Shown piece by piece: positions 1,311-50,200 of a DNA stretch of 63,978 bases (positions are counted from its first letter, which is position 1; each line of letters opens with the position of its first letter). The notes under the pieces were generated by a model. It ran no database searches. It saw only the letters and a list, made by a program, of their open reading frames with translations, and had not been told where the DNA came from. The DNA is from Chara braunii (lineage: Eukaryota > Plantae > Charophyceae). Made by a program: the position numbers and the translations under genes. Location of the stretch: assembly GCA_003427395.1 (NCBI GenBank), contig BFEA01000027.1, forward strand, positions 1,172,170 through 1,236,147, given 5' to 3'.

Positions 1311-3574
1311 GCCCATTCCAACTAGGCGGTAGATCCCGATCACGTGACTATTCCCCCCCCCTCCTCCTCTCTTCATCTAATCGGCAGGGGAAAACAACAC
1401 GAATCAGTAAGCTTTGCGAAGATCACGCCATCGACGATGACATCAACCTACGCTCTGATTCGACGGGCAGTAACAAACTGGGGTGCAGAGCACACGAAGA
1501 ACCGGCGGACGATGATGGCGTCACCTGGACGACCATCGATGATTCCAGCAGCACAGGCCAACAAAAGATTGCAATTGAAGATGTCGTCAACATGGACTCT
1601 GGCTGGATCGTTTGTTGATACGCTTGGTTCCTCATTCATCACTCTGTTCTCTCTCTCTCTCTCTCCTTCTCCGCCATGACATGCAATCAGGAGATCACAT
1701 AATTTTGGAACCCCCTGCGCGTCACATATGTGACTAACAACTTCCCGAACCCATGCTATCTTTCATACCCTTTTTGCTTGTATCATACCAACCCCATAAA
1801 AACCCCGTTTCGTTTTCTTGATTTCGGGTGCCGCGTTTTTGGCCCCCATCTTTCGGAAGCTTTTACGATTCTCGGGTTCTGCTTCTTCTTTTCACAATTC
1901 GGGAAATACATACGAATTTACGTGCGCCTTAGCGAGCGCACTGGGAATTAAGCCCTTCAATTGGGAATTCCGGGATAGGCGGAACTTCGACATGTCCTTT
2001 TTGTGAGTGAATGTTCTCGGTCGCGTTGGGGAAAACTCTCGGAATTTTGTGGGGATGCGAATAGGCGCAGGACTTTCTTTCCCCGCGTCGCTCTTTCTCG
2101 CGCGGATATGGTGATTTCAATTTTGAATTGGTTTCGGATGTAGGCAAGTTGTAACTTTTTCGGTTCCTTTTTCTCTTTTTTCTGTTGACGGCGCCACGCA
2201 TGCAAAGCTTTCTCCTCTCTGTCCCCCGAATCGCTCNCTCCCGCGCTCCTTTTTCCTTCCCCCCCCCCCCTTCTTCCTCTCTCCTCGTAACTGTTTTTCT
2301 TCCTCTCTCTCTCTCTCTCTCTCGCTCTGATCGGTTGCACGCCCATTTTCCCTTTCTTGATTGTCTGAATCTTGGGCCCGTCTTGCGCTACTTCTCGCGC
2401 CTTTTTCCTTCTCACCCTCCAACTCAGCGCACGACGCCCGGTCGATCCTTCGATAACTCCCGCTCGCCAATCAGGTATGTGGATCAATAAGACCTTCCTA
2501 TTGCGCGACGAATCTGATTGGTTTAACCTTGAGTTTCGAAGGATCAACATGGCTTCCACGGACGCTCTTCTCAAAGTCTTCTCCTCCTGCTTCTCCTCTT
2601 ACACCTCGACTTTCGCTTCACTTTCTCCCCCTTATGTCTCCCTTGTCGCAACTATAAAATCCGCAAGCGCGTCCGCAAAGCTCTCTTACGTTCTCGACTC
2701 CTGAGCCAGCTTCCAGGAAGCAGTGGCTAGGCAGAGTGTTTGATGCGAGTCGGAAAGTCCTGTCGGGCAGACGATAGGTTGGCCGGTTGCGCGCTTGATC
2801 GCCACGACGGACTGTGGGATCTAGGCGAACCACGTCGAGTTTACGTCGGCGGGGTGACGATCGCGGTGGTGGGAGTTAGCACGCGACGGCCGGGACCGTC
2901 GGTGCAGGTATTGATGATCGGAGTTGAGTGAGTAATTGGCCTGGGGCCATATTGGAATTCACGGCGAATGCGCCTTTGTGATTGTGAATCTTTATCTCAG
3001 GCGTGAGTGTGAGGTGGCAACGCCGAACTTTTCTCTCTCTTCCTCTCCTCCATTTTTGAATGATGATGCGTCTGGATGTTTATCTCTCCCTTGAATAAGA
3101 ATGGGTCTGCATGATGTTCCTGGGTGAAAGAACTTCCGGAACTCTTCCATTAGTTTCCTGGGTAGTCCCCCTATGCAAGAACCCCGTCTTCTTGTCTTGT
3201 GAACAGTGGATGCACGTGTATTATTCAGCGATCCATCTTTTATCCCTGTGCATATCTCATTTTCGCACCTTCCACAGTGAATGTATGTATGGAGATACGT
3301 GCCTTTTTGCATTGATTGGACAATTGTCGTCGGAATTTTGTTCGAGAATGCAAGAGTGTTTAGATNTGTANTTCTGAACGCACTGCGCATGCCATCTGCT
3401 TTANGCTGCACGACATCTNCAACCGACCTACAGGGCGGCCGCGAAAAACAAGGCGCCTTGAATCAACGCCGCGTTGGCTCACTAAACCTGAGTCGCNGGT
3501 CAGTCCTATAGTTACATGCATGATCAAGCTGATGAGTGTTTTCTTTCTCTCTCTTTTGTGTCGAAAAGGATTGA

Positions 3575-4027
3575 TTGGGGGTTGCNCGAGTGTTTTCTTT
3601 TCTTGATGACGTCTCGGGATTTTTGCAATTGATTGATATGTGGACTGACAAGCACCCTTCGATTGGGCACCAGCCTCCCGTATCTCCCGTCTCCACACGG
3701 CCTTTTCCCTACCACGAGGAAAGGACACGTGTATGCGAGTGGGACGTACGAGAAGCTGTCGCACAAATCAACGGACGATACTACTTCCCTCCGGCAAACC
3801 GTTGTTCAAGGTTCGTAGAGGCTGGGTTTGTCATTATCGATACGCATTTTCCACCTTACTCGATATTGTTGCCATTCAACGAGTTGATCGTCATCCCGTG
3901 GACGTCAGTAGAACCCCATTGGTCGCGCACCCTATGCACCGAATGCCAGCGCTTTGAGCGCTACGAATCCAGGGGTTTCCACTACCGTGTGCGGAGTGAG
4001 GACATAGAGAAAGAGCCACGCGATTAA
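3575..4027 (+). CDS. LTR-encoded ORF of element A (unknown function, CxxC-containing); start codon uncertain
   Basis: GFVIIDTHFPPYSILLPFNELIVIPWTSVEPHW...CTEC motif is shared with the LTR ORFs of B, C and D. Confidence 0.6.
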   Translation: MGVXRVFSFLDDVSGFLQLIDMWTDKHPSIGHQPPVSPVSTRPFPYHEERTRVCEWDVREAVAQINGRYYFPPANRCSRFVEAGFVIIDTHFPPYSILLPFNELIVIPWTSVEPHWSRTLCTECQRFERYESRGFHYRVRSEDIEKEPRD

Positions 4028-4587
4028 GACCCTCCACGTCGGATTCGGAACTGGTCAGTAAACGACGACGGGACTTAATACGAAAGCGAGACACGCGAAG
4101 CGTGCCGAAGCCCTTCTATTCTAAACGACGGGTCGTAGCCAAGTGGGAAGTCCGACAATATTTTCTGGATTGAATTCATATTTCTCCCTCCTCTCGCGCC
4201 AAACTTCCGCGCGCATTTTGCGTCTCTCGAAAAACGATCGACTTACTTCATCGGACCAACCCGGAGGATTTCAGTTCCGTCTGTGTCCCCACACTCAATT
4301 TCCAAAAATCCTTGGCACACCCCTTCTTGCTGTTTTTATGGGCCTCTTTCCGCACATCTAGCACTCCGAACGAAAGACAGCACAGGGCGTGAGGTTGCAC
4401 GTCACACCTGATCATTATGGTACCCGGCCCGGTAAGTCTCCCGATATATACTTTTTTTTTTTTTTTTAAGAAAAAAAAAACAATGCCCAAGGCTGATATT
4501 ACCAATAAGAAAATTGAGGCCGGGGTCCTCACAGTCTACCCGGAGTGACCGAACCGAACTTGCTGAGAACCGGGCTCAGCGCCCCAT

Positions 4588-17060: not shown

Positions 17061-17061
<1 letters not shown>

Positions 17062-18598: not shown

Positions 18599-18650
18599 CT
18601 GCATGTCATACAAGCACCAAGCGCAGCAACAACAAGCAGATGGACGCAGC

Positions 18651-18927
18651 AAAAGAATCAAACTAAATGTAACTGTCAGCAAAATAATCAAACTAAATGA
18701 AACTGTCAGCAAAAGAATCGAACTGTCCTTTCGGACATCCGTTAAAATTGGAACGATACAGAGAAGGAAATGGCCCCTGCGCAAGGATGACACGCATAAA
18801 TCGAGAAATGGTCACTATAAAAAAGAAAAAAGAAAAAAGAAAAAAATCAAACTAAATGAAACTGTCAGCAAAAGAATCGAACTAAATGAAACAGTCAGCA
18901 AAAGAATCAAACTAAATGAAACTGTCT
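18651..18927. repeat. 30-bp tandem repeat (AAAAGAATCAAACTAAATGAAACTGTCAGC), ~5.5 units, interrupted by a U6 copy
   Basis: Units start at 18651, 18681, 18711 (partial), 18840, 18870 and 18900. Confidence 0.9.
18725..18813 (+). pseudogene. U6: U6 snRNA retropseudogene
   Basis: GTCC..GGACATCCG.TAAAATTGGAACGATACAGAGAAG..ATGGCCCCTGCGCAAGGATGACACGCATAAATCGAGAAATGGTC. The AGC triad is lost, an A-rich tail replaces oligo-T, and there is a ~14-bp TSD. Confidence 0.9.
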
Positions 18928-26757: not shown

Positions 26758-27556
26758 CACATGGACACCGGCAGGTTGTTAGAATGACGCTGTGACGAAC
26801 CAATTTCTGTTCCGCGCGATCTTCTGCGCGATGACAATGAGGGGTCCTAAGATGGGAAGGTTGGGCCAATTACAGGAGATCGGTATCGAAGGGAAATTGC
26901 ATCGCTATCCTCGCTTTTTCGTCTTTTCTCTTTCGTCGCTTCTTTTCGGATGGCTGGGTTCAGGGCCGGGCAAGTCCCGAGATGGCCGATTGAGTGGCCG
27001 TCGCGCCGACAAAAGCACGAATAATAATGTTTGACGCCGCTTCTTTCTTGTTTTGTTGTCGGGTTTTAGGCGCGGAGGTCGCGCGGGAATTTTGCTTCGT
27101 TCTTTTTTATTTTCTTTTTCGAATCTTGACGAGTCCTAGACGGCTCTCAGAACTTCGGATTTTCTTTTCGGAATTTGTGCTTCTTTTTGCATTAGCTAGG
27201 GATTTGGGAATTTAGGAATTCGGGATTTCTTTTGTCACGCGTTGTCTTTCTTGCGCGCTTCTTTTTGCGGCTGCAACGGAGCTTTGATTAGTCGGCGCCC
27301 TTAATCTCGCAAGTAACTGTAATTTTTGGGCTGGCGCCATTGTAACTGTATCTTTCTTCTTGAGCTTCGTCTTTCCCGCTCTCTCTTTCCCTTTTGCTGT
27401 GCCTAGCTAGGCCCGNGGCCTGCATGCTCGGATCGATGCGTGGAGAGTGGCTACGTCCCCCACGCCGCGGTCTGGCTATGCAGAACGTAGGCGCTCCCTC
27501 TCCTAATCTCCTTTCTAAGTCCTTGCAATTCTGTGTTCTTCGCGCATGCATGCACA

Positions 27557-27567
27557 CTATAAATTCC
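27557..27567 (+). promoter_or_regulatory. Candidate LTR TATA box (CTATAAATTCC)
   Basis: The same motif lies at equivalent LTR positions in A (2652), the B 3' LTR (37710) and D (minus strand, ~49117) despite flanking divergence. Confidence 0.4.
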
Positions 27568-28609
27568 GGTTGCGCGATTAGATAGCTCTCTTAACCAGTT
27601 GTTGGAAGCTCGGGGTAGCGCGATCAGTGAGTGTCGGCTCACGAGCGAAGTAAGAGGTGAGTTGAAGTGGGAGTCGGGCGACCCGACGAGCTGGTGCCGA
27701 ATGCGCGGGGTTGACGCGTGGGGCTACGACGGACTGTAGCGCGCGGGCGAACCTGACGGGTGCAGGAGGACTAAGCGGGGTGACGACTTCGTGGGTTGGT
27801 GCGTGACGACAGACTATCCGCATCAGAGAGAGAATACCGTTTAGGGGCACCTTGGATCGCGTGCGGAAGGCTTCCATTACGCTGCAGTGATAAGATGCCA
27901 AGCTCTTGGGACTCGGAGTACTTCGACCCTTGGGTGAGAGAATGTATTAGGCAAAGATACCCGGAATTCCCCTACCTAACTGAGAATCGATTGTGACTTA
28001 GGGAGTTTCACTGTGCCGTAACCAGCGATCCAAGGTGCCCCGATTTTCCCACCACGGATATCATGCAATACTTCATATCCCCCGACTTCGTCGTTATCAC
28101 TACCAATTTCCCTCCCTTCCGTCTCCTCCTTCCATATTACCACTCACCGTGGTACCGTGGAATTCCATCGCCCCGTATTGGCCCCGCACGCCTTGCGGAA
28201 ATTGTCGACGACGCGGCAACCGATGAGCCCCTGAAACTAGGGGGCCTAACCAAAACACGCGATGACAGACGCCATGTGTCTGCACCCGAAGGTGCAACTC
28301 ATCGGAATCACAACCGTCCCGGGCGGGCCTCTCCCAGAACCGTCGCCACCAAAACAGACGGATCGGACGGCCTTGAATACACCGCGCATGTCATCTGCCT
28401 TATGCTGCACGACCTCGACTGCCATCAGACCAGAGGTAACTCGCCCCTTTAGATCTATTGCATCTATGCCCCTAAAACCTTACTACATGAGATCTTAATT
28501 CCCACCTGGGACTCCACCCACACTTTTCCCAAAAATCCTTGGCACACCCCTTTTCGCACTTCCAGACCCACATCCCACTCCGATCAGGAAGTCGCGCCGA
28601 GCGAGAGGT

Positions 28610-28622
28610 TGGTATCGGAGCC
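28610..28622 (+). promoter_or_regulatory. Primer binding site, initiator tRNA-Met type (TGGTATCGGAGCC)
   Basis: One mismatch (G:U compatible) from the canonical TGGTATCAGAGC; identical in elements C and D. Confidence 0.9.
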
Positions 28623-28754: not shown

Positions 28755-29807
28755 ATGAACGCTAATCAACAGAACCCCCAACAGAATCCAAATCCACAAC
28801 AAAATCCTAATCAACCCCCACCACGAGCACGGGCTCCCATGACGCCACCCGATCTTTATCTATTCGACCTTGCACATCATCTCGCTGGAGCATGGCTAGC
28901 ATCGCTCCGGGCGCAGCAGTATGATGACAACGAGGCGCAGGTAAATATCCCCGCACGCTTGGGAGGAGACGCCCATCACTGGTTTAGCACCTATGTATGG
29001 GTCGATCTCCCAACGTTCGAGCGAGATTTCTTGAATCGATTCGATTACATCCACCCGGAACAGGCTCTTTTTATGATCAAAGAACGAGTTAAAAAACCCC
29101 TCAAATCTGTCACCGAGTACCGGAACCGATTCTATAGGATGTTTGTGAAAACGGAACGAGGCGAGCAGGTAGGTAGAGATTTGTTAATCGATGGACTTCG
29201 CAGCCGAACGATGAGGGCGAAACTGCGAAAACAGTTCTCCCCCATCAACCATATGCTGCAACAGATCATGGCAGCCGCAAAGGAAATGAAACGAAAATTC
29301 GCTGCGAGTTTCGAAGAAGGGGAAGACTATCATAGGGAAGGAGACTCATCCGAGCTAGCAAGAGCTAAAGCTGAGTTGGCTGCACTACATAACAAATTTG
29401 AAAACATGGGGTTTGTGTCGGGCCCTGTCACCTATCTGGAACAGATTAGTCCCAAACGACCAGCCCCGAGTGTGATTACGAGCGTGCCCGTGTCCGTGAT
29501 GACAGCACCCCCACCCCCAATCGAAACCCCCTCACGACCGAATGAGTCTTCCGCTCTATTAGAACTAACCAAGACATTGGTTACTCTGATTCAGGAAAGC
29601 AAAAAAGAACAGCGGGAACACAACGCTCGAATAGAGGCGATGATGAGGTCGATGCGACCAATAGCGATGCGTGCCGCTTCGATTCAACACGGATTGGCCC
29701 CGGCACCCCCTCCTGCAGGAATCCCTGGCAATCTGAATGTTTGTTACACGTGTCACCAACCAGGGCATATAGCCCGAGATTGCCCTCATCGACCCCCGCA
29801 GCAATGA
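28755..29807 (+). pseudogene. gag: Element B gag
   Basis: Retrotransposon gag-like core (AHHWF..DLPTFERDFLNRF) and zinc knuckle CYTCHQPGHIARDC. The frame continues past TGA codons, probably CGA decay. Confidence 0.9.
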
Positions 29808-32800
29808 GTCGGAGACGCACCGGTAGCGGCGGCCCCGATCGCCAACGGACCTGGATGAGTAGGGGCATTGATGGAAGAAATGGAAGGAGGCGGAAGCACA
29901 TTAGCTACAATGGAGGAAGCTACTGAACTAATCCCGTTGGATCAGTATGTAACACTTGGCTACCCAGGGCTTGGGATGATCGGAACGATTAGACCCGCGC
30001 CAGAACAAAGAGAAGTGGCGGAATGGCGACCTTCTCCAGGAGAAATGGAGTCGGGAGGACCCACCTTCGTCACTGGGAAAATTGATGTTTTGAACATCGT
30101 TCGAGCCTTAGATCATTAGATTCCTCTTCCGATTGAACATCTACTTTTGATATCGGAACAAGCCAACGAACGGATGTTGCAACATTGCAAGGCGAATCAG
30201 AAACGATTCGCCCTCGCCCGAACAATGAACACGAAAGCAAAGAATCCAGCACAAGATGAAAAAGTTGTCGGAGCTTCAGACCCAATACGGTTAGGATTGA
30301 TCCAGAAGGACGATCACTTCCTACGAATCAAACCAATCCCCTGGAAATCCGCCGAATGCGATATCGAGATATGGGGAATCCCGTACAACGTCATTATCGA
30401 TTCGGGAGCCGCTGTTCTGGCTATCTCGTTACGGGTAGTTGAAAGAGCATGGAGGAAGAACGATCTAATCATGCTTACGGAAAAAGATCAGCTCGTTTCA
30501 GCAGATGGGGAGAAGATTAAAACGGTGGGACGAATGACCAATGTTGCTTTTCGATTAGGGAAGGTACATGCTTTGGGAGATGTCATAGTCTTAGACGTAA
30601 ACACTTACGACGTCCTTTTCGGCCTTCCCGCTCTTGTGGCCATGCGAGCCAATCTGGATTTCGAGAGACGATCGATTGTCCTCCGAAATACAGGAGGAAA
30701 ACCTTATGTTGTACCGATGAGATTGACCCTTCGTACCACCACTAACGTGACTCCGCGATTTTTTCCCCTGATGGCAGGAACCCTCCGCGTGATCAACTGG
30801 GATAATTCCGCAGACAACGGGCAACTGTAAAAGGACACGGACAACAGCGACGAGGATGATCCGGTGATCCTGGGGATGGCACAACAGCGTATCCATTACC
30901 CGTTGCAAGGAACAAGGTCGCTAAGCCTGACCGATCAGAGTTTACAGAGAACGCAAGCCATGATTATGGGTGAACCCCTCGTGCAAATTTCGAGGATGGT
31001 CGATTCTTTGGAACCCCTTGGAACCCTGTACGAAGGTATCTCCCCTCTACTTGCACGATATAATGACAAAAGACACTATTGCGACATCACGAGTCTTCCA
31101 CGATCTCTTTTGTCACCTGCAAAGGAGATACGATTGGTACGCTTGGGAGCGGAGACCAATTCTTTGGAACCCCCCGAGCGCCTCGAAACCGGACTCGGAA
31201 TCAAAATCGCAACGAAACCAGTGCCTTGGCAGGACATTCGAGACAGAATAACACCGAAAGAACACGTGGCCATCCGAGAACAGGATGCACGGACGATGGC
31301 CACGGTATTCTCCTGGCGGTCGGACAATTCGTTTATTTTCGCGCCCCCGCCCTAGAACATTAAGCGGGTGAGTGCGAAACACATCGATGTGCGGATATGG
31401 GATGAGTTGTACGAGTTGCACATGCCCCAATACGTACCTGATGAAATCCACCACCTAATCGCTGAAATTCTAAGAGAATACAAGGGAGTGATTAGTTTGA
31501 TAGACACAGACATTGGACTGTCATTAGTCATACAGCACGAGATTCAAACCGGAAATCATCCCCCAATCCACTGTAAGCCCTACAGATACTCCCTGGTGGA
31601 GCGGAAAACGACCCTTGAGCGGATTCGAGAATTCGAAGCCAATGGGTGGATCGAACCCGCCACCGGGCCATGGTCGTTCCCGGTAGTATTAGTGCCAAAA
31701 AAGAACGGATCGATTCACATATGCATTGATTATCGCAAGCTGAATGACATCACCATTAAAGATGTGTACCCCCTTCCCAGGATTGATGACTTGCTGGATG
31801 CGATTGGATGTGCTAATTATTTCAATAAATTTTATATTCGACATGGCTTCCATCACATCCTGGTTAAGGAGGAAGACCGACCGAGAATGGTCTTTGTATT
31901 GTTTGAAGGCATGTGGCAGTGGGTTCGATATCTGATGGGTATTTGCAACGCGCCTGCCACGTTTTAGCGAGCGATGAACGTGACGTTTCAAAACTTCGTC
32001 AACAAGACGTGGCTCACTCAAGGGATGATTAACTTTTGCATCATCGTGTACATGGACGACATCCTCGTCTACTCAGAGACCTATCATGAGCATGCACAAC
32101 ACATCGAGTGGACGCTAGGAGCTCTGAGAGACGCTTGGTTCAAGATCGTGCTCGAGAAGAGCGAGTTTTTCCTCTCGGAAATCTCGTTCTTGGGTTACGT
32201 GGTGACACGTGGAGGACTGCGACCAAATTCAAGGAAAGTCACGGCGGTGAAAGATGCTCCTGTCCCCACATCAGTGATGCAGGTTCGAGCTTTCCTGGGA
32301 TTGGCATCGTACTACCGTCGTTTTATCAAAGGCTTCGCTCGATTGCACGACCTCTTACGAATCTGCTACGAAAGGACCAACCCCTCAGTTGGGACGCAGA
32401 GTGCGAACAGGCCTTCGCCACCCTCAAAGGCGCTCTAGCGACAACACCTATTTTGATCCGGCCGGACCCCACGAAGCAGTTCAGTCTCATAACGGACTGG
32501 CAACCAAAGGCGATTTCCGCTATTCTAGTGTAGAAGGGGAACGACGGCCGAGAGCACGTCATCGAGTACGCGTCTCGTACGGTGTCAGACGAACAAAGGA
32601 ACGACTCAGCCCCGCAAGGAGAATGCTATGTTGTAATCTGGGGAATTCAGCACTTCCATCCGTACTTGTACGGACAGAAGTTCCTCCTTGTAACCAATCA
32701 CGAGCCATTATTGGCTCTCAAGAAACTCACAAATTACACGGGCATGATTGGATGGTGGGCAGTGCGCCTACAAGAATACGATTTCGACATCATCCACCGA

Positions 32801-32974
32801 AAGACAGAGAGGCACGGTAACGCGGACGGGTTGACACGTCTGCATCGCCCCGCTAAGGTATCGAAGGGCGAAGAAATCATTTCGTGGAAGGAACTGGAGT
32901 CAGCGAACGGACCCAAGTACGGACAAGTGGCAGTCCTTCCACGTGGCAAGAACCAGGCGATTAGCAATGGGTGA
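29808..32974 (+). pseudogene. pol: Element B pol: aspartic protease, reverse transcriptase, RNase H (multiple stops and frameshifts)
   Basis: IIDSGAAV; WSFPVVLVPKK..CIDYRKLN; YPLPRIDDLLD; YMDDIL; FLGLASYYRRFI; ITDWQ..; RLQEYDFDIIHR.....NADGLTR. Confidence 0.95.
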
Positions 32975-34681
32975 CGGAGGTAATCCTACAACTCCTCTCT
33001 CCCCCCTCTTGTCTTCATTTTTTCTCTCCCTACTCGACAAATTTTGTTATTTTTGTGAAGCAATCTCGCGCGTCTACTCGATCTCAATGTGTCCTAGCGG
33101 AGAAGGGTATGCAGAATGGATAGATTGTCGATAGTGTGTCGCACGAGCCCATGACTCGTGCATCCAGTACAGAAATGGCGATAAGCCTTGGTTGTGTCCC
33201 TTGTGTTGGACTGATAAGATTCCGACTGAAGCTCGATTTCTTGATGCCACGTCAGAAGGGTTGGAAAAGACCCGAAAGTTTAGAAGGGCCGAGGTATGGA
33301 CGGACACCGCTCTAATTGCCACCTTGGTAGGAACCCCCCTCCAGGACTTCACTAAGGAAGGCTGGAGGAGGGCCAACGAAAGGGCTAGGGACTATCGCTG
33401 GAACGAGGGCCGGTTAGAGAAACGAAAGACAGATGGTTGTGGGATTTGGATGGTAGTATCGCACCCGTTCATGAGGTATGACTGGGTTAAGACGGCGCAT
33501 GAGGAAACGACAACCCATTTTGCCGTACGGATCACGGAAGCGGCAATCGACAAGAACGAATGGTATTGGTTCAATATTCGTGATGATGTGAAATTCATCA
33601 TCGCGAATTGCCATGTCTGCGCTACTGACAAGGCGTCGATCCAACCGCCAAGATCGATAGTACCGACGATGGTTGAACGACCGTTTCAAAGGGTTAGCAT
33701 GGATACTACCGATATTGTGGTGCCCCCTGGACCGAATAGCTGCGAGTATTCAATCCTACTAGTATTCGTAGACCATTTTTCGAAATGGATCGAGGCATAT
33801 CTGTGTCGTACGCGACAGGCGGCTGAAATTGCGCGATATGTCAACCGGTTTCTAGGGATGCACCAGGACACAGAGGAAATCCTAACCGACAACGGGGTAG
33901 AATCTGAGGGGAAGTTTTAAGGAATCTGGTCGTACATGGTGTCGCTATTCGGAACACTGCACCCCACATGTCGCAATCTAATGGCCTAGTGGAAAACGCA
34001 AATCGAGTGATAAAGACAGCGCTGCGACGAAACATCGGGGCACGGGATACGAGGCCCTGGCCCGATATCGTAGATCACATCCTAGCGGTCCATCGGGGAA
34101 CGCCTCACGAATCAACGGGCCTTAGCCCCGTCCAATTACGAACCAATAGTGTAGCTTGTGTCTCGATACCGAGCCTTCCCGACGAATCTTCATTGAATCG
34201 ACGGCCCACAAGGGCCAGGGTTCGGGACAAGGCCAAGCGGCACATGGAGTTGATGGAGCGGTCCCTTCCCCGATTAGCCCGAAAACGCCAGAAAATGACC
34301 GAGTTGGCCCATGGCCGACAGGTCCGTAGCTACGAGGCCTGAAATGGGAACGCAGGACCACGGCCCCAGTATAAATTGGGGGACCTGGTGCAGGTGAGGA
34401 AATGTGCTCGCCAAGGGAAGATAGCGCCACGATTCTTCGGGCGGTTTCGTGTGATCGAACTCGGCCCGAACAGAGTGAACACTGTGCGCCTCGTGCCGGA
34501 GGTTTTGGGAAGCCGATCGGCTCGACCGATCGTCCGCCACGTGTCCTATCTACGTCTTCTCCCTTCCTTTCCATCTCAAGTTGCGTCAGCTTCCTCCTTC
34601 GCTACAGAAGAGAACGACGATTCCTTATCACTCTCATCCCCTCCTGTTTCTCTCACTCCATCCTCATCGCCATCACCATGA
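32967..34681 (+). pseudogene. Element B integrase with N-terminal PHD finger
   Basis: PHD-like C4HC3 at ~33045-33205; HHCC (AHEETTTH...CHVC); D,D-35-E core (SMDTT, LTDNG, NGLVENAN); GPY/F-like C-terminus (YKLGDLVQVRK..FFGRFRV). Confidence 0.9.
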
Positions 34682-36693: not shown

Positions 36694-38710
36694 TGCACGG
36701 TTGATTGACACGTGTCACGGCGATGGCACGCACGATCTCCCCCCCTTGGACTGAAGAAAGCCCATCCTGAGGAATTATAGGAGACAACCACGTGTGCCAC
36801 CCTGGATGACGTCCACACTCTTATCGAACGGTAAGTGGCAACAAAGAAGGCTCCGCGTGTCAATCGATTAGAGAGATTGACACGTCTCATGATTCAAGCA
36901 AGTAGGAGCTTGCTTAAGATTGGAACCCCCTGGGCGTCACATATGTGACGAACCAATTTCTGTCCCGCACGATCTTCTGAGCGATGACAATGAGGGGTCC
37001 TAAGATGGGAAGGTTGGGCCAATTACGGGAGATCGGGATCGAAGGGAAATTGCATCGGTATCCTCGCTTTTTCGTCTTTTCTCTTTCGTCGCTTCTTTTT
37101 GGATGGTTGGGTTCAGGGCCGGGCAAGTCCCGAGATGGCCGATTGAGTGGCTGTCGCGCCGACAAAAGCGCGAATAATAATGTTTGACGTCACTTTTTTC
37201 TTGTTCTGTTATCGGGTTTTAGGCGCGGAGGTCGCGCGGGAATTTTGCTTCGTTCTTTTTGAATTTCTTTTTGGAATCTTGTCGAGCCCTTGACGGCTCT
37301 CGGAACTTCGGATTTTCTTTTCGGAATTTGTGCTTCTTTTTGCATTAGCTAGGGATTTGGGAATTTAGGAATTCGGGATTTCTTTTGCCGCGCGTTGTCT
37401 TTCATGCGCGCTTATTTTTGCGGCTGCAACGGAGCTCTGATTAGTCGGCGCCCTTAATCTCGCAAGTAACTGTAATTTTTGGGCTGGCGCCATTGTAACT
37501 GTATCTTTCTTCTTGAGCTTCGTCTTTCCCACTCTCTCTTTCCCTTTTGCTGTGCCTAGCTAGGCCTGCGGCCTGCATGCTCGGATCGATGCGTGGAGAG
37601 TGGCTACGTCCCCCATGCCGCGGTCTGGCCATGCAGAACGTAGGCGCTCCCTCTCCTAATCTCCTTTCTAAGTCCTTGCAATTTCGTGTTTTTCGCACAT
37701 GCATGCACGCTATAAATTCCAGTTGCGCGATTAGATAGCTCTCTTAACCAGTTGTTGGAAGCTTGGGGTAGCGCGATCAGTGAGGGTCGGCTCACGAGCG
37801 AAGTAAGAGGTGAGTTGAAGTGGGAGCCGGGCGACCCCAAATGCGCGGGGTTGACGCGTGGGGCTACGACGGACTATAGCGCGCGGGCGAACCTGATGGG
37901 TGCAGGAGGACTAAGCGGGGTGACGACTTCGTGGGTTGGTGCGTGACGACGGACTATCCGCATCAGAGAGAGAGAGAGAGAGAGGATGAGAGAGCTGAGG
38001 TTGATGGACGTGGATTTGCAATTTTCTTTGTCTTGTCTCCCTCTTTGCTTTTGTATATAAGTTTTGATCTCGGCTTAGGGCGATTTGCCCGTTTCCTTTG
38101 TTTTCGGAATCTTTGCCTCGGTTTCAGCCCACCCTTGTTTTGCGGTTGATCTTGATCTCATCTATCGTATGTTCTGATGAATAACTAGATGAATGAATGC
38201 CATGTCTGATGTTTTTCTTTTGTCTGGTCATTGCCTTGGCCTGTCATAAGCATGGTAGAAATTTCTGCATAGTCGTCTTTCTTGCCTCTATTATTGTTCA
38301 TCACTTTGATCCGCTGTTGTTCTAATGTTGCTATGATATCTGATGTATGACAATGCCTTGCATATTCGGGAATGATTGCTTGCGAGATTACAGAGTGATT
38401 AGATGATTGGGTAGTTGTTTACGACACATGGCGATTTTGCATAAGGAATTAGGCTCTCATTCTCCCAGAAACGAGCGAACACCCAGCGGGGACACACGGA
38501 AGCACGATTCGATCCGTGCAGCCTACACGTGTCCACACGCGCCGATTCGTGACCATCAACGAACTTGACATCTCTGGTATCGGATAGGCGGGAATTCCCC
38601 CCCCTCCTCCACACACACCTAAACGGATAGAAATTTCCGATATCACATCGGAAAAATCCCCTTGCCGGTTAGACGCGTGCGGAAGGCTTCCATTACGCGG
38701 CAATGATAAG

Positions 38711-39193
38711 ATGCCAAGCTCTTGGGACTCGGAGTACTTCGACGCTTGGGTGAGAGAAAGTATTAGGCAAAGATACCCGAAATTCCCCTGCCTAACCGAG
38801 AATCGATTGTGCCCTAGCGAGATTCACTGTGATGTAACCAGCGATCCAAGGTGCCTCGATTTTCCCACCACAGATAACACGCAATACTTCATATCCCCCG
38901 GCTTCGTCGTTATCACTACCAATTTCCCTCCCTTCCGTCTCCTCCTTTCGTATCACCAACTCACGGTGGTACCGTGGAATTCCATCGCCCCGTATTGGCT
39001 CCGCACGCCTTGCGGAAATTGCCGACGACGAGGCAACCGACGAGCCCCTGAAACTAGGGGGCCTAACCGAAACACGCGACGACAGACGCCACGTGTCTGC
39101 ACCCGAAGGTCTGACTCATCGAAATCACAACCATCCCGGGCGGGTCTCTCCCCGAACCGCCGCCATCAAAACAGACGGATCGGACGACCTTGA
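38711..39193 (+). CDS. LTR-encoded ORF of element B (intact in the 3' LTR; disrupted copy at 27895-28376)
   Basis: GFVVITTNFPPFRLLLSYHQLTVVPWNSIAPYW...CGNC motif is shared with A, C and D. Confidence 0.65.
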   Translation: MPSSWDSEYFDAWVRESIRQRYPKFPCLTENRLCPSEIHCDVTSDPRCLDFPTTDNTQYFISPGFVVITTNFPPFRLLLSYHQLTVVPWNSIAPYWLRTPCGNCRRRGNRRAPETRGPNRNTRRQTPRVCTRRSDSSKSQPSRAGLSPNRRHQNRRIGRP

Positions 39194-39629
39194 ATACACC
39201 ACGCATGCCATCTGCCTTATGCTGCACGACCTCGACTGCCATCAGACCAGAGGTAACTCGCCCCTTTAGCTCTATTACATTTATGCCCCTGAAACCTTGC
39301 TACAGGAGATCTCCGTTCCCACCTGGGACTCCACCCCCACTTTTCCCAAAAATCCTTGGCACACCCCTTTTCGCACTTCCAGGCCCACATCTCACTCCGA
39401 TCAGGAAGTCGCACCGGGCGTGAGCTTGGGCGTCACAAGGCACGGCTGGACACACACTCCCCTAGCTTGACGCATGGTACTATTACAGACACTGCCTGCA
39501 CACCACCCGGGGGTCAGTCCATGGGTGTTGTATGCTGGCCTAGACTTCACGTTGGATGCTGGTTGTTGTTGGCTTTGGTCGCTCTGACAATCTCCCCCAG
39601 CCCGGACATTACACACATTATATCCACTT

Positions 39630-39700
39630 CCCACGGTGGTACATGTGGTAAAACTCTCCAATTTCATACTGTAGGTCACAAGTTCGAGTCCGGTTCCGGA
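39630..39700 (+). other. Degenerate tRNA-like A/B-box sequence
   Basis: GGTGGTACATGTGGTAAAAC ... AAGTTCGAGTCC with tRNA-like spacing. Confidence 0.4.
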
Positions 39701-40101
39701 CTTTGGGGGGGGTCCTGTCCAGATAGGCCTGTCTCTACCACATACACCCACACACAGGGATACCACTTCAGATAGCACAACCATGATACATATTCTATCA
39801 ATACCATACACACATACTATACACACACACATAGCTCAAGCTACACACAAACACATGTACTACTGGAGGTCATAAGAGCACCTCTCACCAATACTCAGTA
39901 CTCACCTCGCAGATGCTCCATGGTGGGGAGCAGTGTTTGTCGGGTCCACATATAGATTACGAAAAGATGCAGAGTACATACACATATACACAACCATAGG
40001 GCTGGGAGAAGGTCACGATCAACTAATAATGATGATAGTCGTCCGATGATAAGCATCCCCCTTAATATCAGCTAGATCTGTGGTGGGTGACTAGAGGGCG
40101 T

Positions 40102-40147
40102 TGTGACACCCAACTTCACGTCCGGCGCGACTTCCTGATCGGAGTGG
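40102..40147 (-). mobile_element. Right end of another B-family element (E), interrupted by element C
   Basis: Reverse complement CCACTCCGATCAGGAAGTCGCGCCGGACGTGAAGTTGGGTGTCACA matches 39392-39437. Confidence 0.85.
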
Positions 40148-42107
40148 TGTGACGAACCACTTTCTGTTTCGCGCGAATTTTTGTGCGATGACAATGAGGG
40201 GTCCCGAGATGGGAAGGTTGGGCAAATTGCGGGAGGAGGGGTCGGCGAGTAAATTGCGTCAGTGTCCTTGCTTTTTTCTTTTCCTTCGCTTCGCTACTCC
40301 CCTTTCGATGGTGATGGGACAGGCCTGGGACAGACGGTTGAGTGTGCGCGCCCCATTGGGCGTGATCAATAACGATTGGCGATAATTATTTCTTGCTCTG
40401 CTAGGAATAAAAGGAGGGAACTGAGATTTTGGCGCGACGATCGCGCGGGAGCTTTTCGGGTTTGTTTTTAAAATTTTCCTTTCAACTAAGAACGAGCCCC
40501 GAGGGCTCTCGGAATTTTTGATTTCCTTGTCTCACCGGAATTTTTCTGTTGCAATTTTGAGTTCAGATAGGAATTTAGGACTTTTTGAATTTCTTGCCGA
40601 GCGGCGCCTCTTTCTTGCGCATATATTCCTGCGGGGGGAACGAAGTTATGACTAAGCGGCGTCCTTAATCTTGCATGCAACTGTAATCGATGGGCGGGCG
40701 CCATTGTAACTGTATCTTTCTTCTTGTTCCTTCGCATTCTTCCCGCCCTTTTTCCCTTCTTTTTGCTGCATCTGATTGGCCTGAGCGCTGCATGCCTAGA
40801 TCGATGCGTGGAGAGTGGCTACGTCCCCCACGCCGCGATCTGGTCATGCCAAGCGTAGGCACTTCCTTCTCTGCTCCTCTTTTCAAATCCCTGCAATCTC
40901 ACATCTTCGCGCACGCATGCATGCGATAAATTTCATCAGCGTGATTAGAAAGCTCTCTAAAAATTTTGGAAGCTCGAGGTTAGCGCGATCAATGAGGGTC
41001 GGCTAATGAGCGAAGTAAGAGGTGAGTTGACGTGGGAGTTGGGCGACCCGACGAGCTGGTGCCAAGGGCGCGGGGTTGACGTGTAGGCCACGACGGACTG
41101 TGGCGCACGGGCGAACCTGACAGGCACATGCGGACTAAGCGGGGTGACAACTTCGTTGGTGGGTGCGAGACAACGGACTGTCCGCATCGGAAAGAGAGAG
41201 AGAGGGGAAACAGGCGGATATGGAATTGCAATCTTCTGTCTTTTCTCAGTCCTTGTGTATGAAATTTTGGCTCTGGGCGAGGCGCCCTTGTTTTGCATTT
41301 TTGACATTTCTTTCGGCTTTGTGTGATGTGCGGCTCAATCTCCGTCCTCCCTATTTCGTTTTTGCATCCGCTTGATGAGATGGGTTTGATGATCTTGTAA
41401 TGCTTGAATACCCGATGTTTTGCGTGTCATCCTGAATCATCCAGCGCTTGCAGCACTGATCTATTCTCACTCGGATGATTGGTAGGTGAAAGGAGTTTGA
41501 TACTGTTACGGTGCTTCGATGTATGTCTGGATGGTGATGAGATATTCTCCTAATGGCCACATAACTGCTTTTTGGTCGAACAAAATTGTCTGAAGGATTG
41601 TTGCATGAACCTTCTTCTGCACAGGTGATTGGCTAATGGATCAACCCACAGTGGACCAACCCCGCGAGTCCCCGTGTAAGTGCGATCTGACGAGCACGAC
41701 TTACACGCGCCCCCACGAGGACGGCCCGCAACCCCGAATAATCTTAGCACGACAGATCTCGACGCGAATGATGGAATCCCTATCTACGGTACGGGTCAGG
41801 ACGAATTGCGGTCCCGACGCCCTCAGACATTCGGGGATCGCTGAGTGTATAGGCTTTGTGCAAGACCGAAACGGAACGAGATTGATAGTCTGAGGGAATT
41901 AGTTGCATGACTGAGCCGGTACGCTGACAGATCGCTCCCCTGGTTATTTGCGCAGATCAGGATCTGGTCCGCTGGCCCTTGCGCACGCACGTGTAAGACA
42001 GCGGTCGTCCGCAGACGTGCCATCTATACGTGCGCCCGCAAAAGCCAGCCACGATCTCGCCCCGTAGGAAGATGTGTATGCAGGAATTCGGTTGAACGAG
42101 ACATGCA

Positions 42108-42686
42108 GTGGCGATAGATTCTCCTTTCTGGATCACCGATCGCGAAAGCCTGAGGGACCCAGAATACCGAGCGTATTGGGAGAGGGAACAGATCCGTCGG
42201 CAGCGAATCCGACAACATCGCCACCTTCGGAACCCTGGGTATCTTGAGTACCCCTGCCGGACTGAAAACAAGCGACTGTGCAGGGGCGACTTCCAGCTGG
42301 CAATCAACCGAGACTCGCGGATTCCCGGTTATCCCGACACCCGAAACCAGCAATATCTTCTAACCCAAGGCTTCGTTGCCATTACCACTGACTTCCTTCC
42401 CTACTATACCGTCCTCCCCTACCACCGGTTCCTCGTGGTCCCCTGGGATTCCATAGCCCGGTTCTGGCCCTGTCCGTCGTGCTCGGAGTGTCGGCAGCCC
42501 GACGAGCATCGGCAGGTGATGATCGTGCAACGAGCTCATCTCAGGGCCGAGCGACGAGAACCCAGCTCGTCTTCGTCGGACCCCGAGACGTGCGACGGTC
42601 GGCAGCGGTACGAGCACTCCCACAGAGACACCCGTAGCAACCCACCCCGGCCCAGGCAACACAATCTGGCATCAACCCAACTCTGA
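42108..42686 (+). CDS. LTR-encoded ORF of element C; start uncertain
   Basis: GFVAITTDFLPYYTVLPYHRFLVVPWDSIARFW...CSEC. Confidence 0.6.
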   Translation: MAIDSPFWITDRESLRDPEYRAYWEREQIRRQRIRQHRHLRNPGYLEYPCRTENKRLCRGDFQLAINRDSRIPGYPDTRNQQYLLTQGFVAITTDFLPYYTVLPYHRFLVVPWDSIARFWPCPSCSECRQPDEHRQVMIVQRAHLRAERREPSSSSSDPETCDGRQRYEHSHRDTRSNPPRPRQHNLASTQL

Positions 42687-43004
42687 GCCAGAAGACACTT
42701 GCACTCCTACCCCTGAAACTTGCCACAGAAGATCTCAGTTTCGACCTGGGACTCCACCACAAATCCCCAAAAATCCTTGACACACCCCTTTTTCGCACTT
42801 CCGGGCCCCCATCCCACTCCGATTAGGAAGTCGCGCTGGGCGTGAGGTTGGTATCGGAGCCGACACGTGGCGAACTCACAGGGAGGTAAGCAGGATAGAC
42901 GTTCAGACGATCTGGCGAATAGAGGATGACCCAGACAGCGGAACGCGCCTCGACACGATCCTATGGTACTTAGGAGTCGATCGGCCGGAAGACAGACCGT
43001 CAAC

Positions 43005-44937
43005 ATGAGCGTCAATCAAGCGCTAAACGTTAATGTACAGTTGGGCGGGGCACCTGTCCCCGCACCACCCGTCCGAGTTCGCACACATGCAGCTCCCCCT
43101 TATTTGTATCTCTTCGACTCTGCGCATCACCTAGCCGGGGCATGGCTGGCCACCTTACGGGCTCAACAGTACGATAACGATGAAGCCCGGATCAACATCC
43201 CCGCCCGATTGGGAGGAGACACGCACCATTGGTTTAGTACCTACGCCTGGATCGATCTCCCGACCTTCGAGAGAGACTTCCTAAATTGGTTCGACTACAT
43301 CCACCCCAAACAAGCTTTCTTTATGATCAAAGATCGTGTGCAGAAACCTCTTGAATCCGTTACCGAATATCGTAGTAGGTTCTATAGGCTGTTTGTCAAG
43401 TCAGAGAGAGACGAAAAGGTAGGTAGAGACTTGTTTATCGATGGGCTTTGAAGTCGGGCGATGAGGGCAAAAGTACGAAAGCAGTTCTCCCCCATCAACC
43501 ATACCATGCAGCAGATTCTGGACGGAGCCGAGGAGATGGAAAGAAAGTTCGCCGCCAGCTTCTTAGAAAGCGAAGATCACGCCAAGGAGGGAGACTCCTC
43601 GCAGCTGGCCCGGGCGAAAGCTGAGCTGGCAGCGCTTCAGAACAAATTAAAAAATATGGGTTTCGTCTCCGAACCTGTCACCTACCTAGAACAGGTCGCG
43701 GCCAAAAGGCCGATACCCGATACAGTCGCAGGACTACCCACAGCGATCACACCCTCGCCTCCCCCAAGCATCCCCGCAAAGCCTAACGAATCGAATGCCA
43801 TATTAGAATTAACTCGAACGTTAGTTTATTTGATGCAGGAAAGTAAGAAGGAGCAGTGTGAGCACAATGCACGAATTGAATCGATGATGAGGTCGATGCG
43901 CCCCATTACCATTAGGGCAGCCCCAGGAATGCCAGGAGCAGCCCCTGCCCCAGCAATAGGAGGGGCAGCAGCCAACACAAGTGTTTGTTACACGTGTCAC
44001 TAGCCAGGACATATAGCCCGGGACTGCCCCCACTGACCTGCACAACCCAGGATCGAAGCCGCGCCAGTGGCAGCGGCCCTGATTGCTAATGGACCCGGTC
44101 GAGTGGCTACGATGGTGGAAGAAATAGACAATGGTGTGAAAGACGATAACTTTATACGAATCCGGACTCTTCCATGGAAATCCGCCGAATGCGACGTGGA
44201 AGTTTGGGGAAACCCCTATAGCGCGGTCCTTGATTCCGGAGCCGCGGTCCTGGCCATCTCCTTGCGAGTAGTCGAACGGGCCGGCAGGCGAAAGGATGTG
44301 ATCCCATTCACGGAAGGCGATCATTTCGTCTCCGCTGACCAAGGCAAGATCCGAGTCATAGGGAGGATGGCGAATGTAGCCTTCCGCATCGGTAAGGTCA
44401 ATGCCTTAGGTGACATGGTGGTCCTAAACGTGAACATGTACGACCCTTACCGCGTTGCGAGCCACGCAGGATTTCAAACGACGAGCCGTTATCCTCAACA
44501 ACACAGGAGGAAGTCCATACACTATTCCGATGCATCTCACTCTTAGGGTAGCCTCGATGGTCGAGCGACAACGACAGGAACCTGGCACGGTTCTGCGAAT
44601 GATACGATGGGAAGAATCCACGGACGACTCCGACACTGAAGAAAACGAGGCTTCCTTGCCATCCATCACCACCGAAAGCGAGGAAGAGAACGACCCGCAG
44701 ATTCTCGAACTAGCACGACGGATAATCCATTACCCGGTTCGACCGAAAACAACGAAGACGTTCGTATTTAGCAACGAGGCAGCCCGACGAACTCGGGCCC
44801 TTATCCTAGGAGAACCACCGGTATAGGTGTCACGGATGCCCGATTCTTTGGAACCCCCTCGGACCCTATACGAGGGAGCTGCCCCACTGCTACCACGATA
44901 TCTGGACAAACGGTCGTTTTGTGATGTTACGGGCATA
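43005..44937 (+). pseudogene. gag: Element C gag-protease
   Basis: Aligns to B gag; CYTCH*PGHIARDC; VLDSGAAV. Confidence 0.9.
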
Positions 44938-46109: not shown

Positions 46110-46178
46110 CTGTAGAACACCAATTTCTCCCGTTCGAAACTGCGGTCCGGGTTCTGATCCTCGCTCGACCCATTCGAG

Positions 46179-47449: not shown

Positions 47450-47810
47450 TTCTAGTCGAGCTTCGGCGGACCTCTGTCGAGTGACGGGAGGACTAAGACG
47501 GTAAGATCGGTTAGATGATCTTCCTCTCGCCAGTTCGTCTTACTCTCGTCAGAACCGACACGTGTCGGCTCCGATACCAACCTCACGCCCTGTGCTGTCT
47601 TCCGTTCGAAGTGTTTAAAATTTCGGAAGTGGCCCCGGAAAGGCAGCAAGATGAGGTGTGCCAAGGATTTTTGGAAGATTGAGTGCGGGGACACAGACAG
47701 AACCGAAATCCCCAGTGCCGGTCCGACTTAGTAAGAAGGGGGGAGAGTCCGTCACTGCGCGGGTTCTGAGGGAGAAGAAGGCGCGCGTGGGACTCATGGC
47801 GTGAGGAAAT

Positions 47811-48350
47811 TCAATCCAAAAAGTATCGTAACGGTTGAACTTCCCATCGAGCTGTCGCTTTACGTTTCGCGTGGAAGGGGGCGGGCACGTACTTGGTATC
47901 CCGTTTCCGGGTCAAGTCCCGACGTCGCTCATTACACAACTCTGAATCTGACGTGGAAGGCCTTAACAGGGTGGCTCTTTCCTTATGCTCATCTTCCTCT
48001 CGTACTCGGAAGTGAAAGCCCTTTGATTGGTAACGCTCGAAGCGGCAACAATCGTTGCACAGAGTGTTAGGCCAATGGGGCGCTACTGCTGACCACGGGA
48101 TGACGATTAGCTCATTAAACGACAATAGCAATGAATAAGGCGGAAAGTGTGTGTCCACAATAACAAAACCAGCACCGACAAATCCAGAGCATCGAGTTTT
48201 AAGAGGCAAGTAGTATCTTCCGCCGATCTTGGTGACGGCTTCTCGTACGTCCCACTCGCATACACGTGTCCTCTTCTCGTTATATGGGAAGGGGCGTGGG
48301 GGGGATGCGGAAGGCCGGCGCCCAGTCGGCTTGGGACAATCGGTCCACAT
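47811..48350 (-). CDS. LTR-encoded ORF of element D
   Basis: Close homolog of 3575-4027 with mostly synonymous differences. Confidence 0.65.
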   Translation of the reverse strand: MWTDCPKPTGRRPSASPPRPFPYNEKRTRVCEWDVREAVTKIGGRYYLPLKTRCSGFVGAGFVIVDTHFPPYSLLLSFNELIVIPWSAVAPHWPNTLCNDCCRFERYQSKGFHFRVREEDEHKERATLLRPSTSDSELCNERRRDLTRKRDTKYVPAPFHAKRKATARWEVQPLRYFLD

Positions 48351-50200
48351 GGCAACAGCGAGATCCTATTTAGCATGCATCCCACATGTTAATCAGAACG
48401 ATCCTACGATCTAGTGGAAGACAAGTCCATCAGGCAATCGTCTCATGATCCAGACATTCTCATTCATCCTCACAGACATTCATCAAAGAAGGTGCGAAAA
48501 TGGCAGCCACACATCATTCAGTTCTCCGTGTGCTCTGTACCCCTGCCCCGTTATCCCCGATTAATTAAGCGTCAGCCAAACAACAATCTCATTCCTCGTG
48601 TACAATAGATTAACAAGCATCCATAATTGTTCATGTCATAGAGGGAGAGAGAGGAGGTAGGGAGGAGAAGACGCGGAGCAGACAAGATAGATGAAAATTA
48701 CACCAAGATCCGATGATGAAAAAAAGGAAAGAGCTTCGGGCTTAACTGTCGTCGAACTGAACTCACACCAAGGAATAGATTCGAGACAGGGAGGCGCATC
48801 CGCCGCGAAGTTCAGTTATGGCCCCGGGCCATTCATCCATTCAACTCTGATTACTATCCCCGTGCATGCACCGACGATCCCGGCCGTCGCATGCCACTTT
48901 CCACCACTGCGATCGTCACCCCGCCGACTTAGTCTCTGCACAGCCTTCCCGGATCCCACAGTCCGTCATGGCGATCAGGCGCACCGTCGGCCAGACTACA
49001 GTCAGCTCGTCGGGACTTTTCGACTCGCACTCCACACATACCATCTAGCCACCGCTTCCCGGAAGCTGGCATACAAGTTGAGAGAGAGATTTGTGGGCGC
49101 GCTTGCGGAATTTATAGTTGCGGGAAGGGAGGTAGATACGAGGGAGGATGCAGATTGGGGCAGGGAAGGGTGAGGGGGGGTAGGGGATAATTGCTCGGCG
49201 AAAGCCATGTTGATCCTTCTGAGTCCGATCGTAGCCAATCAGAGTCATCGCATAATAGGAGCTTCCTCTTACACGGCGCTTCTCCTTGGCTAGACGAGGT
49301 AAGGAAAAGACCGACCGGGTTCTTGGGTGTAGGACTTAGAGTGGGAGGGGAAGGGTGCGCAGGATAGCGCGAAACGGATCCAAGATTCAGATGATCAAGA
49401 AAGAGAAAACGCGCGCGGGGCGAGAGAGAGAGAGAGAGGGAAAAAACGGTTACAGAGGGAGAGTGAGCGTGGGCGCGAAGGGAGCGTCGAAGATGGCGAG
49501 GGGAGCAGAAAGGGGGAAGCTCGCTTGCATGGCGCCGATCACAGATGCAAAAAGAGGCACCAAAACAGTTACAGATTCNNNNNNNNNNNNNNNNNNNNNN
49601 NNNNNNNNNNNNNNNNNNNNNNNNNNNNNNNNNNNNNNNNNNNNNNNNNNNNNNNNNNNNNNNNNNNNNNNNNNNNNNNNNNNNNNNNNNNNNNNNNNNN
49701 NNNNNNNNNNNNNNNNNNNNNNNNNNNNNNNNNNNNNNNNNNNNNNNNNNNNNNNNNNNNNNNNNNNNNNNNNNNNNNNNNNNNNNNNNNNNNNNNNNNN
49801 NNNNNNNNNNNNNNNNNNNNNNNNNNNNNNNNNNNNNNNNNNNNNNNNNNNNNNNNNNNNNNNNNNNNNNNNNNNNNNNNNNNNNNNNNNNNNNNNNNNN
49901 NNNNNNNNNNNNNNNNNNNNNNNNNNNNNNNNNNNNNNNNNNNNNNNNNNNNNNNNNNNNNNNNNNNNNNNNNNNNNNNNNNNNNNNNNNNNNNNNNNNN
50001 NNNNNNNNNNNNNNNNNNNNNNNNNNNNNNNNNNNNNNNNNNNNNNNNNNNNNNNNNNNNNNNNNNNNNNNNNNNNNNNNNNNNNNNNNNNNNNNNNNNN
50101 NNNNNNNNNNNNNNNNNNNNNNNNNNNNNNNNNNNNNNNNNNNNNNNNNNNNNNNNNNNNNNNNNNNNNNNNNNNNNNNNNNNNNNNNNNNNNNNNNNNN

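Follow-up and report, generated by a model that had tools for sequence, protein, structure and literature searches.

The LTRs of Ty3/Gypsy elements in the charophyte Chara braunii carry a homologous reading frame of 160–190 codons, which we regard, with a probability of about 0.93, as a real coding gene of the element. A profile search, performed against the six frames of the whole window (the 63,978-nucleotide stretch of contig BFEA01000027.1 analysed here) and of both fetched loci, recovered the frame in all five window LTR copies named in an initial annotation (in elements A, B, C and D, the two LTRs of B counted separately) and in two further copies, L001+ and L001-, on a related contig (L001; BFBZ01005442.1). 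When the protein encoded at 38711 was used as tblastn query the frames of C, D and A were matched with E-values from 2e-20 to 6e-15, and a homologous frame is confirmed at all five named places, with the coordinates or the state of some copies corrected (Table 1). A match of 33 residues on L002, an unrelated bacterial-looking contig, lay outside the listed ORFs and was dropped from all counts.

Table 1. Positions of the LTR frame and of associated features in the window (+ forward strand, - reverse strand)
Feature	Position	Strand	Remark
LTR ORF, 3' LTR of element B	38711..39193	+	intact, 160 aa from ATG
LTR ORF, 5' LTR of element B	27895..28376	+	broken
LTR ORF, element C	42096..42686	+	open for 196 codons, no in-frame ATG
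LTR ORF, element D	47811..48350	-	intact, 179 aa
LTR ORF, element A	3638..4173	+	frameshifted near 4005-4020
5' LTR of B	26791..28609	+	ends at PBS without terminal CA; ~700 nt of T-rich leader missing
3' LTR of B	36944..39426	+	
5' LTR of C	40148..42848	+	
3' LTR of A with terminal repeat	1729..4406	+	
5' LTR of D	47580..49578	-	start in assembly gap
TATA-like box	37709..37717	+	counterparts 2652, 27557, 40924, 49117 (-)
Predicted intron, 3' LTR of B	37810..38445	+	conserved GT donor, T-rich, 20 ATGs, acceptor-like end
Predicted intron, counterpart in C	41022-41624	+	
Inverted repeat/putative hairpin, B/C-type leader	38488..38542	+	counterparts 41665-41715, 41982-42036
Best-conserved non-coding motif, both LTR types	39346..39365	+	also 4302, 28529, 42767, 47674 (-)
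gag-PR-RT-RNase H-integrase of B, decayed	28755..34680	+	Pfam matches in Ty3/Gypsy order
PBS	28610..28622	+	same site 42849 (+), 47579 (-)
Internal 11-nt repeat B1 + TA + LTR start	36931..36950	+	16-bp palindrome; counterpart in A 1716-1735
Terminal 11-nt repeat B2, ends in CA	39427..39437	+	not in 5' LTRs; counterparts 4396-4406, 40102-40112 (-)

Two of the seven DNA copies, those in the 3' LTR of B and in D, have no break between the ATG and the family stop. The copy in the 3' LTR of B is open already from 38588 and the true start may be situated further upstream; the 5' copy of B contains stops at 27994, 28224 and 28263 together with a frameshift near 28140, and in C position 42108 is a GTG and not an ATG. 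For A a start at 3575 had been given; the frame itself is present, but its start is the ATG at 3638, and a gap of 4 nt near 4005–4020 shifts the frame, the family frame ending at a stop at 4171–4173 with the same last residues as in D. Of the copies on L001, L001+ has its stop a few codons early, and L001- has a break close to the beginning of its core and is interrupted again downstream. In each of the five window copies the frame starts 715–771 nt short of the LTR end, i.e. not in the internal region, and the distance from its end to the PBS is 160–235 nt. The 5' ends of the frame vary between copies; an aligned Met-Trp-Thr start is common to the A-type copies A, D and L001+ and to the C. 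braunii gene model P0003.

Alignment of nine cores revealed 12 invariant columns, including two Cys and two Trp, and a CxxC whose first Cys is replaced by Tyr in one sequence, so that this third Cys is found in eight of the nine. The exact motif that the initial annotation had given for all LTRs is present in A, D and the 3' LTR of B (three of five) but not in C or the 5' LTR of B. Three LTR families had also been proposed; by DNA identity there are not three or four but only two types, A/D (68–70%) and B/C (72%), and the poor alignment of LTR DNA described between families holds between these types but not within them. In the ORF tree the A/D type and the B/C type are split at 100/100, and the promoter blocks group in the same way (75–90% identity within a type, 57–63% between types), indicating that the ORF predates the divergence of the two LTR types and has been inherited along with them. 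On L001 the A-type LTR is nested in a B-type LTR of opposite orientation, and an AT-rich insertion of ~530 bp (L001:1980-2505) is located near the end of the A-type LTR.

Selection on the frame was analysed using Nei-Gojobori counts with Jukes-Cantor correction. Over the 82 ungapped codons of the A/D core the differences are distributed 18/9/40 among the three codon positions and dN/dS is 0.12; the five other frames of the same core all contain stops, four of them giving values near or above 1 and the mirror frame a low value, as expected. A recount of the 13 codons earlier compared between A and D gave the same eight synonymous codon changes and one replacement. With DNA-guided alignments dN/dS is 0.14 for D/A, 0.06 for D/L001+, 0.22 for L001+/A and 0.33 for B/C, the values for B/L001- and C/L001- being 0.07 and 0.18, and Fisher P is below 1e-4 in all six pairs. 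The A/D value becomes 0.36 if A is read in its own shifting frame, the codon-position test alone is not significant for B/C (P 0.11) and synonymous sites are saturated between the two LTR types. As controls, five aligned non-coding LTR blocks were read in three frames each, giving dN/dS of 0.47–0.94 and no codon periodicity (chi-square P 0.47–0.90); because 3 of these 15 control frames reached P < 0.05, a modest dN/dS deficit alone means little. Compared with the controls, the range of 0.06–0.33 in the six pairs bears out the purifying selection that the initial annotation had proposed. The gag of B/C has a dN/dS of 0.04.

A fragment captured from the host, or a frame open by chance, functionless for the element in either case, is a very improbable explanation. 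Such a reading could draw on the low number of fully intact copies (2/7), on the near-neutral difference that separates B's 5' and 3' copies over their first 80 codons (dN/dS 0.96, with 0.29 in the remainder) and on the presence of the sequence in two Chara gene models. Recent breaks are expected after insertion, however, as is a near-neutral difference between the 5' and 3' LTR of B from post-insertion decay, and selection is seen between all element lineages tested, which largely refutes this reading. The gene models P0003 and P0004 (CBR_g17916 and CBR_g19774), 70–72% identical to copy D, are the only named relatives found; they fuse the A-type ORF to unrelated exons, in one case a DCP1 gene, which fits LTRs situated inside host genes, and we read them as LTRs probably absorbed into host gene models by annotation artefact or exonisation. 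The LTR ORF explains why Chara gene models absorb the sequence as an exon. A word-seeded search of 5.8 billion proteins gave relatives in 2 of 1092 near-length candidates and 2 of 6083 longer ones; neither of two candidates for shorter relatives (30–66 aa) was retained, and no stand-alone host homologue was found in the word-seeded protein searches. The initial annotation had named a dN/dS near 1, or a captured host gene, as speaking against its proposal; what was found is low dN/dS and no host-gene match in the searches run.

Complete LTRs are 2.5–2.7 kb long and share a common order. Beyond the TATA-like box, 765–920 nt from the LTR start, the sequence is GC-rich and conserved for ~300 nt and then T-rich and poorly conserved; a small island of conservation precedes the ORF, and after the ORF come a strongly conserved motif ~80 nt before the LTR end and then the PBS. 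The ORF is situated 770–1180 nt downstream of the conserved box in full LTRs, in agreement with its earlier placing downstream of a TATA-like box and upstream of the PBS, and if this box is the promoter the ORF is likely to be located in R or U5 and not in U3.

In the five copies whose leader is complete and includes the TATA box, 21–27 ATGs are found upstream of the ORF. For the ORF to be the first cistron, ahead of gag, as the initial annotation had suggested, this number in the unspliced leaders would call for a spliced RNA or another route. When analysing the leaders a putative intron was identified (Table 1), whose 15-nt donor region is invariant in all three full B/C-type LTRs, with an acceptor-like site 600–710 nt downstream in each. 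In the 3' LTR of B, where the acceptor is AAG, 20 of the 21 upstream ATGs fall inside the predicted intron. Its removal leaves 2+7 ATGs in C, and in the A type, where an aligned GT is found at the same border in A, D and L001+, the first exon retains 3, 10 and 9 ATGs, respectively; D has no AG at the aligned acceptor. Judging from these sequence features, a spliced RNA initiated at the promoter of the LTR itself is the likely template for the ORF.

The ORF could also be a last exon or a host-directed factor, which is considered unlikely. An in-frame ATG is missing in C, and the copies are not alike at the 5' end of the frame; the CERV product of the C. elegans Gypsy element Cer1 is, in the available part of its description, built in this way from an internal ORF (PMC10309623), and additional sense ORFs under selection are found upstream of the 3' LTR (dN/dS 0.11 and 0.33). 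The aligned Met-Trp-Thr start shared by A, D, L001+ and P0003 speaks against a last exon, however, and so does the frame in D, which stops at the family stop though the 3' part of D has been lost.

After the acceptor the B/C-type leaders contain one or two inverted repeats that form predicted hairpins (four folded, z -1.8 to -2.3). In a set of five hand-picked sequences 7 of 16 pairs have changed on both sides; the covariation score was reached by none of 500 shuffles, and five hairpin measures were reached by 0–11 of 500 shuffles. No fold was obtained for two candidates of the A type (z -0.3 and +0.9), and the hairpin is therefore not common to both LTR types. G-U pairs occur in the stems, the inverted repeat is equally a palindromic DNA site, and a search of Rfam gave no match in 36900–43000. 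A peptide motif upstream in the B/C leaders, K...YT-C/R, was rejected as coding, being found on both strands at one place and reflecting the inverted repeat. In the C leader an ATG-initiated frame of 85 codons (41636–41893) is located just past the predicted acceptor and overlaps the hairpin; it gave no Pfam match and is not conserved open in the other copies.

The product would be basic, with a predicted pI of 8.2–10.7 in five proteins and with Arg/Lys-rich tails of 12–20 Arg+Lys in 56–78 residues (a feature of composition only), and the best 19-residue hydropathy window of 0.9–1.4 in five proteins gives no clear membrane helix. Putative zinc binding, as proposed in the initial annotation, would rest on the CxxC and one invariant Cys. 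A fourth nearby Cys is found in each LTR type at a type-specific place, and the pattern would be compatible with a four-Cys metal site, for which it is not evidence. No Pfam family was matched by any of six members at E up to 10, including the domains PF10536, PF04195 and PF03078 known from plant extra ORFs such as Ogre ORF1, TRP28, PMD and Athila ORF1, and zinc-finger families (PHD, RING, CCHC and others) gave neither a full ligand pattern nor a profile match. The best E-values in NCBIfam and PHROGs were 0.11 and 0.088, each for one of the six members; PDB sequences gave a best E of 2.2 in one search and no match in another, and the ESM Atlas a best value of 0.78, with unnamed clusters and no usable named match. 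Two AlphaFold2 models were poor (mean pLDDT 39 and 49), and the Foldseek search with the better of them, with nothing under E 6, carries no weight given the quality of the model. Among viral contigs no relative of the LTR protein or of the junction pattern was found. The LTR protein appears, in the searches run, to be without relatives outside Chara-type sequences.

The element that carries the frame has the domains of Ty3/Gypsy, best seen in B, where the reverse transcriptase piece has Ty3 RT as closest solved structure (E 8e-18) and the LTRs are 92–94% identical. The PBS, which we take to be of the initiator-Met type, follows directly after all three 5' LTRs. These three lack the terminal CA, an extra 11–12 nt ending in CA is present at all four outer right ends, and both 3' LTRs are preceded by a copy of this tail plus TA and a C-run, with a palindrome instead of a polypurine tract. 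The arrangement B1-TA-LTR-B2 is found in B and A, with B2 at two further element ends, which suggests integration of a circle cut at the internal CA-TA-TG junction; the split-repeat layout leaves the place of the ORF in the duplicated repeat unchanged. Split repeats of the form A-internal-B-TA-A-B, here together with a DDE integrase (rve matches), were observed in the window at 36922–36950, 39427–39437, 1707–1735, 4396–4406 and 40102–40112 (-), L001:2545-2556 also carries a split-repeat end, and a conserved TTGGAACCCCC is located immediately before B1. Target sites could be compared for B, the only element with both ends, giving ACGC (26787–26790) and AGGC (39438–39441), with 3 of 4 positions matching. 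The other flanks are GCGT (40098–40101), CCTG (4407–4410), GTGG (40144–40147) and TCGT (L001:2557-2560), and three of the six fit NCGN.

Within the pol of B a PHD-like Cys/His segment between RNase H and integrase (33033–33260) is broken by a stop and gives a weak Pfam PHD match (E 0.0075, below the curated cut-off). A stretch of ~300 codons between protease and RT (30831–31355), partly common to C (44834–44910), gave no Pfam match in the part scanned, and no methyltransferase match was found among the pol pieces scanned, which are decayed and incomplete. In D (45036–47579, reverse strand) the next domain after gag is an integrase core, neither protease nor RT nor RNase H being discernible in between, and D adjoins the truncated C tail to tail near 45036–45083; D is likely a non-autonomous form that keeps an intact LTR ORF. 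Elsewhere in the window, which is DNA of plant type, the exons of a host phospholipase D gene (13361–18811, reverse strand; C2, PLDc and PLD_C domains) are found among decayed retroelements, and another repeat family, unrelated to the LTRs studied here, is present in three copies of 65–74% identity in both orientations (51324–52616 and 60282–63719).

A replication cofactor, which would help to copy a very long R-U5 of ~1.7 kb, to join the circle or to present the CA-TA-TG junction to integrase, is a quite unlikely role for the protein. The elements in which the ORF occurs do have split repeats of the form A-internal-B-A-B and lack a polypurine tract, and D, where no protease, RT or RNase H can be recognised between gag and the integrase core, has kept the ORF intact. 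The available part of the description of a split-repeat Gypsy in Klebsormidium, however, mentions no such ORF (PMC5890265), and the link between ORF and split repeats is limited to these few elements.

For the role of the protein, which we infer to be accessory or regulatory as the initial annotation did, the splicing of the leader is central. Six of the seven copies retain the T-rich putative intron. The seventh, the shortened 5' LTR of B, was rejected as a spliced copy, its junction being off the predicted splice sites and accompanied by ~25 unrelated bases. When a retroelement replicates, the 5' end of its packaged RNA is the template for R and U5 in the two daughter LTRs alike. Since six copies keep the stretch and the seventh is not cut at the predicted sites, the packaged RNA would be unspliced there, while the ORF probably depends on the spliced form, being poorly accessible to scanning as long as the stretch remains. 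Our tentatively preferred model, built by analogy, is that of a nuclear export factor for unspliced element RNA. From the LTR's own promoter a spliced RNA would give a small, basic, Cys-containing product; this may bind element RNA in the nucleus, and the bound, intron-retaining genomic RNA would be exported, as with Rev and CERV. We infer the promoter, the intron, the translation and the nuclear location of the product, and its export function is guessed. The model is ranked first because a basic Cys-containing product of a spliced RNA together with a leader hairpin fits the picture known for Rev, Rem and CERV. Against it, none of the possible functions is backed by a sequence family, a solved relative or a fold, the leader is not cleared of ATGs by intron removal in C, A, D and L001+, D lacks the acceptor AG, the hairpin is confined to B/C-type leaders in a hand-picked set with z of only -1.8 to -2.3, and no export signal was identified in the LTR protein. 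In plants, elements like Ogre and EVD produce both spliced and unspliced RNAs, and a dedicated export protein is not known for them.

A close rival of the export model is a regulator at the level of DNA or chromatin (a transactivator or anti-silencing factor of the LTR), possibly acting at the leader inverted repeats as double-stranded sites, which we consider possible but doubtful. The selection, the basic tail and the Cys pattern fit it equally well, as does the leader inverted repeat, which can just as well be a palindromic site in DNA; ORF and LTR type vary together, and the weak PHD-like segment in pol, although below the curated cut-off, points in the same direction. Accessory proteins of transposable elements often counter silencing, according to the available text of one source (PMC13547354). 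No DNA-binding family or fold was found in Pfam, PDB or the ESM Atlas, however, and the G-U pairs of the stems are slightly more in keeping with RNA than with DNA.

The LTRs of elements other than retroviruses are treated as non-coding, and genes like this one would be missed because surveys of additional plant-element ORFs describe those that are internal or at least 250 codons long. If a gene under selection follows the promoter of the LTR, even a solo LTR may give rise to protein. The ORF is also a small, testable candidate for the means by which an algal Gypsy would regulate its unspliced RNA or its silencing, and the lineage has DIRS-like ends as well. A wider and rather speculative proposal, to which we give little credence, is that the LTR is a self-contained gene, its promoter, its intron, the frame of a new protein family and a poly(A) site close to the end of the LTR all lying within a giant R; every LTR, solo LTRs included, would supply a trans regulator that switches the element from short spliced LTR transcripts to the full-length genomic RNA and back, in a Gypsy integrating as a circle cut at the internal junction. 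A search of full-text literature gave no LTR-encoded ORF in a plant or algal retrotransposon and no account of these Chara elements, in a coverage without most subscription papers, so that a prior description is possible; a phrase search on LTR-encoded ORFs returned only MMTV, HIV and miRNAs.

In HIV the nef frame is located in the LTR, in U3. MMTV sag is likewise placed in U3 in the accessible part of its description (PMC9412291). The analogy to these two genes drawn in the initial annotation is a loose one. MMTV sag/naf and HIV nef resemble the Chara ORF in being coding frames in the LTR, copied to both ends, but sag and nef belong to vertebrate retroviruses and are situated in U3, ahead of the main promoter, whereas the Chara ORF is downstream of the TATA-like box, likely promoter of a non-enveloped algal element, and its product has no clear membrane helix. 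A precedent is CERV of Cer1, with a spliced mRNA, a candidate NLS and a Cys-rich loop, which is required for export of genomic RNA; Rev, Rem and CERV all solve the export of intron-retaining genomic RNA, as far as the available parts of these sources go (PMC10309623, PMC9412291). The likeness consists of a small accessory product with a basic stretch and a Cys-rich part, a spliced mRNA and an element genomic RNA that keeps its splice sites, the last two being predicted in Chara. No sequence relationship to CERV, Rev or Rem is shown, and an export role in Chara would be by analogy.

Among plant Gypsy elements extra ORFs are placed in the internal region (PMC7264820), and REXdb, in the part of its description available, counted ORFs of at least 250 codons (PMC6317226). 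Ogre ORF1 and the ORFs of Athila and Retand are comparable in being lineage-specific conserved ORFs beside gag-pol, and some products of such plant ORFs are nuclear and proposed to be regulatory, according to accessible portions of the reports (PMC7264820, PMC6317226, PMC11963269). The Chara ORF differs from them in lying inside the LTR, hence twice per element, in its 160–190 codons and in the lack of a Pfam match.

In the layout of its ends the B element shares A1-B1-A2-B2 with PAT and Ngaro elements, as these are described in the available text (PMC4157794). DIRS-like A-B-A-B repeats in a Gypsy are also reported for KnitGypsy-Dnmt3 of Klebsormidium nitens, which has in common with the Chara elements a charophyte Gypsy domain set, this layout and purifying selection on an accessory coding region; the domain that KnitGypsy-Dnmt3 has in addition is a Dnmt3 within Pol, and the available part of the description makes no mention of an LTR ORF (PMC5890265). 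Phygy of Physcomitrella, with a 4-bp target duplication, a preference for NCGN, mostly a tRNA-Trp PBS and, in the accessible text, no extra ORFs (PMC6317226), is only a partial fit, NCGN being found in 3/6 Chara flanks, and the Chara element differs from it in a presumably Met-type PBS and in its extra ORFs. Extra ORFs of Gypsy elements are already well known, and the finding is an accessory ORF of a Gypsy element, placed inside the LTR.
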